This document shows positions 1 through 695 of a stretch of DNA of 700 nt, piece by piece; within the stretch, counting starts at the first letter, position 1, and the number at the start of each line of letters is the position of its first letter. The notes beneath the pieces are model-generated. The model was not told the DNA's origin. It searched no databases and was given only the letters and a program-made list of their open reading frames with translations. Both the position numbers and the translations under genes were made by a program. The DNA is from Escherichia coli (GTDB lineage: Bacteria; Pseudomonadota; Gammaproteobacteria; Enterobacterales; Enterobacteriaceae): NCBI RefSeq assembly GCF_003334255.1, contig NZ_QOWU01000198.1; one strand, written 5' to 3'.

Positions 1-14
1 TTTTTTTATTCTTT
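1..14 (-). other. A/T-rich spacer immediately 3' of the I stop codon (minus-strand sense AAAGAATAAAAAAA). It contains a second in-frame TAA at 8..6 and is presumably the start of the I-J intergenic spacer.
   Basis: Seen in sequence: an abrupt switch from GC-rich coding sequence to an A/T run at the window edge. In lambda, as I recall, a short non-coding spacer of about 60 nt separates I from J. No Shine-Dalgarno sequence or J start codon is visible in these 14 nt. Confidence 0.5.
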
Positions 15-695
15 TTACCCCTGCCGCCCGATAACCACGACCTTTCCGCCCCCGCCTTCATCACGGGTACTGATGTCCTGGGATATACGGCGGGAGCCAA
101 CCAGCATTTCCCCGTAAGGCACCGGCATCGGGTTACCCTGGGCAATCATGTTGTCCAGTGACGAAAAGTACGTGTTCTGTCTGCCGTTATCCGTTGCGCG
201 GTAATCCGGTGTTTTTGCCTTCGGGGCCAGCATCTGGGCCACACCGCCCAGAATCATGCTGGCTCCAAGTGAAAACAGCATCGTGGTGGCAGAAAAACCA
301 CCGGCTGCCAGGGCTGAACCCCATAACGCCATCGAGGCACCGGCAGTGAGGAAAGAGCCCACGATGGCTGCCGCCCCCAGCACAATCTGCAGTCCACCCT
401 TTCCGGCCCCGGCCAGTCGCGGCACAATGTGGATGACCGTTCCCTCACCCAGCTGTTCGTGAAGACGGGCGTACACCGCCTCCGGTGCCGTGTCATCACC
501 GGCAATACGTATCTGGTACCAGCCTTCGTTCATCTGACGGCGAAAGCCCGGCATCTGCATCGACAGGGCGCGGATGGCTTCCGCTGCCGTGTTCACATAC
601 AGGCTGAGGCGGCGGCCAAATCGTTGTAAATCCCCGTGAAGGCAGATGCGTGCCAGTGGCGGTGACGCCAGACAGAATGCGTTCGTCGTTGCCAT
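15..695 (-). CDS. I: Lambdoid phage tail tip assembly protein I (lambda gpI family). ATG at 695..693, TAA stop at 17..15, 226 aa. Residues ~19-101 form the N-terminal soluble domain ending in GAGKGG, residues ~102-158 are a Gly/Ala-rich hydrophobic segment, and residues ~159-226 are the conserved C-terminal region.
   Basis: Seen in sequence: a single uninterrupted 681-nt frame on the minus strand covers nearly the whole window, with codon usage (CTG, GCC, CGC, GGC) consistent across it. From memory of the lambda gpI sequence, the translation shares extended motifs with it: GDLQRFGRR, NTAAEAIRALS, PGFRRQMNEGWYQ-RIAG, IHIVPR-AGA, QIVLGAAAI-GSF, FSLGASM-LGGVAQMLAPKA, QNTYFSSLDNM-AQGN and VVVIGR. 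The length (226 aa) is close to the 223 aa I recall for lambda gpI. No search was run. Confidence 0.9.
   Translation of the reverse strand: MATTNAFCLASPPLARICLHGDLQRFGRRLSLYVNTAAEAIRALSMQMPGFRRQMNEGWYQIRIAGDDTAPEAVYARLHEQLGEGTVIHIVPRLAGAGKGGLQIVLGAAAIVGSFLTAGASMALWGSALAAGGFSATTMLFSLGASMILGGVAQMLAPKAKTPDYRATDNGRQNTYFSSLDNMIAQGNPMPVPYGEMLVGSRRISQDISTRDEGGGGKVVVIGRQG

Follow-up and report, generated by a model that had tools for sequence, protein, structure and literature searches.

The A/T-rich run at the stop codon of gene I, in the 700-nucleotide stretch of Escherichia coli DNA analysed here (the window), is very probably the U-tail of an intrinsic terminator that ends a PasB-family small RNA (sRNA) encoded on the plus strand, and not a signal for the translation of gene J. 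A sequence-only reading of the same letters had taken the minus strand only; read on the plus strand, the tract corresponds to the U-tail of an sRNA terminator. We propose that positions 1-17 are the meeting point of two convergent units, with gene I ending on the minus strand and the sRNA ending on the plus strand. The PasB-family sRNA, about 83-100 nt long, would start from a sigma-70 promoter of its own within the I-J spacer and be antisense to the tail operon; it would be transcribed on the plus strand of the window, entering from beyond position 1, and its hairpin and body would lie outside the window. The hairpin and the U-run would release RNA polymerase 6-7 nt before gene I and so keep antisense transcription out of I, while the U-run would also supply the 3' oligo-U of the sRNA that is bound by Hfq.

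The gene that occupies nearly all of the window is well defined. Its product aligns over the full length with lambda gpI (66% identity, E 4e-104) and matches PHROG tail assembly families (E 3e-87 and 6e-79), and in relatives it is annotated as tail tip assembly protein I. The open reading frame ends ...CAG GGG TAA AAA GAA TAA AAA AA on the minus strand, and AAAGAATAAAAAAA is the minus-strand reading of positions 14..1. The tandem in-frame TAA codons and the A/T-rich tract described in the sequence-only reading are therefore real features of the window letters (17..15 and 8..6), with two codons, AAA and GAA, between the two stops. The sharp change in composition past gene I is likewise genuine: in the closest relative, L001, gene I has a GC content of about 0.60 and the spacer one of 0.33-0.45. 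On the plus strand, the T7 run is followed by ATTCTTTTT. Such a run is uncommon in a GC-rich window (expected number 0.07; at least one in 13 of 200 shuffles) but by itself unremarkable, and its significance lies in its conservation. The features are collected in Table 1.

Table 1. Features at the 3' end of gene I, in window coordinates, with the basis of each assignment.
Feature	Position	Strand	Basis
TTTTTTT, predicted U7 at the 3' end of a PasB-family sRNA (U-run of its intrinsic terminator)	1..7	+	hairpin-T-run conservation; 3' end in E2348/69
ATTCTTT, distal T-rich stretch downstream of the predicted RNA release site	8..14 (8-16 at widest)	+	alignment A1
Second in-frame TAA	6..8	-	complement of the last two U's of U7 and the following A
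TAA stop of tail assembly gene I	15..17	-	ORF 695..15; same stop annotated in relatives
CDS, lambda-gpI-like tail assembly protein, 226 aa	18..695	-	lambda gpI and PHROG matches

The start of gene I is given in two ways in public records. In RefSeq (PGAP) the protein has 193 aa and begins at an internal start (window 596-695, minus strand; L001 5006-5108), while the long form is used in a GenBank Stx-phage record; the 226-aa reading frame shares about 100 nt with the 3' end of gene K, an overlap also present for lambda I.

Because the window ends at the tract, its flank was extended through relatives. Of 5,426 complete E. coli genomes, 3,315 have a lambdoid prophage I gene that matches the window (98.9% identity at best), and Stx and other phages match it at 96.9% or less. 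No complete E. coli genome and no phage record exceeds 98.9% identity to the window, and a 170-nt exact pattern taken from it had 0 matches in the viral contig and genome contig collections. The closest relative, L001, has 98.9% overall identity to the window and is identical over the last 95 nt. From there L001 runs on as TAAAAAGAATAAAAAAA-TCCCGCAG-TGATCGCGGAG-CTGCGGGG-ACAGACAAATG..., also written ...TAAAAAGAATAAAAAAA-TCCCGCAGTGATCGCGGAGCTGCGGGG. For conservation we used 84 loci, namely L001-L004 and 80 IMG/VR loci whose I proteins are 97-100% identical to that of the window; alignment A1 comprises 16 distinct alleles.

Extended from these relatives, the plus strand of the window, antisense to the tail genes, reads CCCCGCAG-CUCCGCGAUCA-CUGCGGG-A-UUUUUUU-AUUCUUUUU. 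A hairpin of the form CCCGCAG (TCCCGCAG)-loop-CTGCGGG adjoins the tract in all 84 related loci, including 60 of the 60 that carry the exact tract of the window, and a run of six to eight T adjoins this invariant hairpin in 84 of 84. In alignment A1 the seven stem pairs, the following A and the T6-8 run are invariant; variation is seen in the distal tract, the loop and much of the body. The versions of the distal tract (ATTCTTTTTA, ATGTTTTATC, CGCTTTTATG, ATGCTTTACC and ATTTTCATCC) are nevertheless all T-rich, and the 12 nt after the stem hold 8-10 T in 19 of 19 alleles. The hairpin has a calculated dG of -10.6 to -13.5 kcal/mol in these 19 alleles, with a loop of 10-16 nt that is large for a terminator. 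The RNA folds of four alleles each end with the hairpin followed by U6-7, and according to a terminator scan of L001 a site is called on the antisense strand only. No covariation was found in the terminator stem, all seven pairs being invariant among the 16 alleles of A1; because the stem never varies, covariation can lend no support here, and the support comes from its invariance amid variable flanks. We infer from the 84 of 84 relatives that a GC-rich hairpin lies just outside the window. The T7 run of the window and the hairpin of its relatives together make up what, judged from sequence, is a canonical intrinsic terminator on the plus strand. One IMG/VR locus, L020, keeps both the tract and the hairpin and has a premature TAG at codon 206 of gene I, which suggests a decaying prophage.

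The same position is occupied by a published sRNA. PasB of EPEC O127:H6 E2348/69 is an 83-nt RNA of prophage PP6 (NC_011601.1, minus strand, 1466343..1466261) that lies between E2348C_1436 and E2348C_1437 in the arrangement "(> <) >" and was detected on northern blots with the probe AATCCCGCAGTGATCGCGGAGCT (Pearl Mizrahi et al. 2021, PMC8550237, Table S6). The probe sequence has an exact match adjoining the tract in both L001 and E2348/69. In E2348/69 gene I ends at 1466255, and the 3' end of PasB (1466261) falls on the final T of the homologous T7 run, which aligns with positions 1-7 of the window. According to the published work on PasB, its stability on northern blots is Hfq-dependent and its expression is higher under non-activating conditions; RIL-seq in EPEC E2348/69 gave 37 partners, a longest U tract of 7 and an RNA2 fraction close to 1. 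It is embedded in a phage structural operon, and all Pas sRNAs end in a 3' stem-loop and poly-U that are interpreted as an intrinsic terminator and a likely Hfq site (Zhu, Shabalina & Storz 2026, bioRxiv 10.64898/2026.05.13.724894). A role of the terminator in Hfq binding is attributed to Otaka 2011 and Sauer & Weichenrieder 2011, as cited by Tree et al. 2014 (PMC4104026). PasB does not belong to any Rfam family, and a search at a permissive E-value gave only chance-level, terminator-driven matches, so that membership rests on sequence identity to the published locus. That the source genome carries a PasB-family allele, and of which kind, is deduced from its relatives: the nearest one is of the PasB type, but diverged alleles are joined to this I end too, the distal tract of the window (ATTCTTTTTA) being fused to non-PasB alleles as well. 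The feature as such would be the textbook terminator of a published prophage sRNA.

Upstream of the terminator by about 100 nt and on the same strand, L001 has a predicted sigma-70 promoter with 11 of 12 matches to the consensus (TTCACA-16-TATAAT, 5825..5798). Across alleles of the relatives, to which this comparison is confined, the -10 element is TATAAT, AATAAT, TATCAT or GATAAA, and in A1 the promoter block and a UUAAUCUUC core immediately upstream of the terminator are invariant or nearly so. The published 5' end of PasB (83 nt) lies about 16 nt downstream of the start predicted from TATAAT, so that either the promoter or the 5' end is provisional. A further block upstream of the sRNA -35 element (TCTTCACATT; columns 1-12 of A1, sense strand GAAAATGTGAAGATATTCAGAATTTTTAT) is invariant even where the -35 and -10 elements are degenerate; it could serve as a binding site for a regulator or belong to a divergent promoter. 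A small open reading frame in the spacer (ATGAAGATT...) was considered and set aside as not conserved, its ATG being ACG in the commonest allele and its frames differing.

Does the tract mark a site of recombination? The sequence-only reading had raised the possibility of a module junction at which lambdoid phages exchange their tail fibre genes. In one form of this idea, which we regard as possible but tentative, the tract and hairpin are the left boundary of an exchangeable I-J cassette, with repeated crossovers by homologous recombination between lambdoid prophages in short invariant blocks. The I end with the tract TAAAAAGAATAAAAAAA is indeed joined to at least eight loop/body combinations. 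Bodies of the Y type and of the Z type are both found with tract type A and with tract type D (four gametes), and both spacer tail modules are found with body type P and with body type Y, giving all four combinations. A comparison of L001 with L007 shows 93-100% identity for gene I and the tract, 62-70% for the sRNA body, and 95-100% once the promoter block is reached and on into J. In some phages this spacer also holds sodC, and lambda has a 60-nt spacer without the cassette, the I gene of the window being two codons longer than that of lambda. A comparison of the junction across relatives thus does reveal a sudden drop in identity, but it starts just past the tract, in the hairpin loop and body and not in the A/T run itself, and among loci that share a tract variant identity is continuous across the tract. 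The unit exchanged would be a small-RNA cassette and not J, which is not the element swapped at the tract. Mosaicism of this kind is compatible with the terminator, as a consequence of its conservation and not as a separate function. The view that the I-J spacer is a moron site, with the terminator as the left edge of an exchangeable cassette, is in this way partly supported by the alignments.

A Cu,Zn superoxide dismutase gene (sodC), called with NCBIfam NF007628 (218 bits against a cutoff of 165), lies antisense to the tail genes in L040 (about 2375-2899, minus strand) and also in L079, L080 and L082. In these four loci sodC occupies the usual place of the PasB-family promoter, and a remnant of the sRNA body and the terminator remain downstream.

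Sequences of the PasB type, complete from promoter to terminator, are found at 1,003 places in 960 of the 5,426 complete E. coli genomes. A diverged allele typified by L007 (1774-1924, minus strand), which combines the PasB promoter, the UUAAUCUUC core and the terminator with a body only about 62-70% identical to PasB, is about as common, with matches in 800 genomes. With a sensitive search, some allele is detected in 1,779 of the 5,426 genomes (about a third), at 3,998 places and with up to eight in one genome.

Members of this wider family may already have been seen in EHEC. EcOnc22, EcOnc23 and EcOnc24 are Hfq-CRAC sRNAs of EHEC O157:H7 Sakai of about 85 nt on northern blots, where they are destabilised without hfq (Tree et al. 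2014, PMC4104026, Table S2). Their peaks lie in the I-J spacers of Sakai Sp15, Sp14 and Sp11, respectively, antisense to tail genes (L086 1294-1427, L087 and L088). Old and new Sakai coordinates differ by a shift of about +128 nt, which was calibrated on AgvB; after this shift the three peaks fall on a PasB-like RNA body with the same terminator and U7. Their body allele differs from that of PasB in being L043-like. PasB is probably equivalent to EcOnc22-24, a correspondence that depends on the coordinate conversion. The link is absent from the two PasB papers cited here: Table S6 of PMC8550237 gives no EHEC homologue, and the term "EcOnc" does not occur in Zhu et al. 2026. Taking these observations together, we lean, by a modest margin, towards the view that PasB is one allele of a widespread, polymorphic I-J sRNA cassette of lambdoid prophages that is shuffled at invariant blocks, of which EcOnc22-24 would be expressed members and whose promoter could be displaced by a sodC moron. 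If this is true, the "lowest diversity" reported for PasB would be an effect of the BLAST thresholds used. The allele counts, the equivalence with EcOnc and the shuffling at promoter and terminator blocks suggest a family that is larger and more variable than described.

It is improbable, in our judgement, that the hairpin next to the A-run works on the sense strand, ending or stabilising the 3' end of the I (late operon) transcript. A stable hairpin does directly follow the I stop and the lambda I-J spacer contains a hairpin too, but what comes after it in the sense direction is GACAGACAAATG or GAGAGTTACG and not a U-run, the scan calls the antisense terminator only, and the late operon requires I and J to share a transcript. 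A terminator acting at the end of I in the sense direction, or in both directions, was accordingly rejected, the sense side having no U-run.

A second hairpin does lie between the sRNA promoter and J (L003 5857-5880; L004 about 1931-1954; L001 5897-5928). In short spacers it has the form of a sense-direction terminator, CAGGCAYCC...GGRTGCCTG followed by a T-run, with one compensatory change (T-A to C-G), which would put a terminator shortly before J within the late operon. In the 344-nt spacers a different, bidirectional-looking hairpin (AAACCCCGGTATC...GATACCGGGGTTT) takes this place, and lambda has an analogous hairpin within its 60-nt I-J spacer.

Least of all do we credit the translational reading, in which the tandem stops would be a fail-safe for the termination of I and the A-rich tract would enhance initiation at J, although the two in-frame TAA codons and the A-rich run are truly present and the Sakai allele also has a second in-frame stop (TGA AAA TAA). 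Extension below position 1, which the sequence-only reading had suggested as a way to measure the spacer and which was made here through relatives, places the J start 234-344 nt from the I stop. The I-J spacer is longest in L001 (344 nt) and phage vB_EcoS-783R2 (342 nt) and shorter in E2348/69 (240 nt) and an Stx1 phage (235 nt); where sodC is inserted, it grows to 851-852 nt. The suggested enhancement of J translation is not borne out, since J begins 234-852 nt downstream in all relatives and has a Shine-Dalgarno sequence of its own (GGGAGG, AAGGGTGAG or AGAGGTGA). The fail-safe stop fares no better. A second in-frame stop is found at 61 of 83 scored loci but in just three of six tract variants, which is about what chance would give for the conserved TTTTTTTA in any of three frames. 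The variants that lack it are TAAAACATAAAAAAA (the E2348/69 type), TAAAAGCGAAAAAA (the Stx1-phage type) and TAAAGCATAAAAAAA, and lambda is without such a tract. As the second TAA consists of the last two U's of U7 and the next A, read on the other strand, its in-frame status is set by spacing only. Judged by the tract variants, the second TAA is an incidental by-product and not a conserved fail-safe.

What does the probable PasB-family terminator mean beyond this locus? It replaces a speculative translation or recombination signal, and the finding itself matters little. Its practical lesson is that an odd A/T tract at the end of a gene calls for a look at both strands, because the U-tails of convergent sRNA morons within phage structural operons come to lie against neighbouring stop codons. 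The side results may help the study of horizontally acquired sRNAs.

Among known systems, phage lambda shares with the loci described here the gene order of the I-J region, a gpI of the identity given above and a hairpin upstream of J. It differs in its 60-nt spacer without the A/T tract, the CCCGCAG hairpin or the antisense promoter, and its I ends two codons earlier. AgvB and AsxR (Tree et al. 2014; RF02702, RF02703) are, like PasB, prophage morons that encode short Hfq-binding RNAs in which the 3' terminator region is conserved and the 5' region varies, but they are located at the PR' moron site and not among tail genes. Identity with AgvB or AsxR had been suspected from a CA-rich stretch in the RNA and is ruled out by that site together with the Rfam result: neither RF02702 nor RF02703 matches L001, L003, the window or the Sakai I-J loci, while the AgvB control locus scores 96.5 bits. 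The closest parallel is PasB of E2348/69 itself. The window holds only what would be the last 7 nt of the RNA, and its distal tract is ATTCTTTTTA where E2348/69 has ATGTTTTATC. On the other hand, the site in the I-J spacer, the orientation antisense to the tail genes and an end 6-7 nt from the I stop are the same in both, the U7 and, in the relatives, the terminator stem are identical, and L001 has the PasB body including the exact probe sequence.
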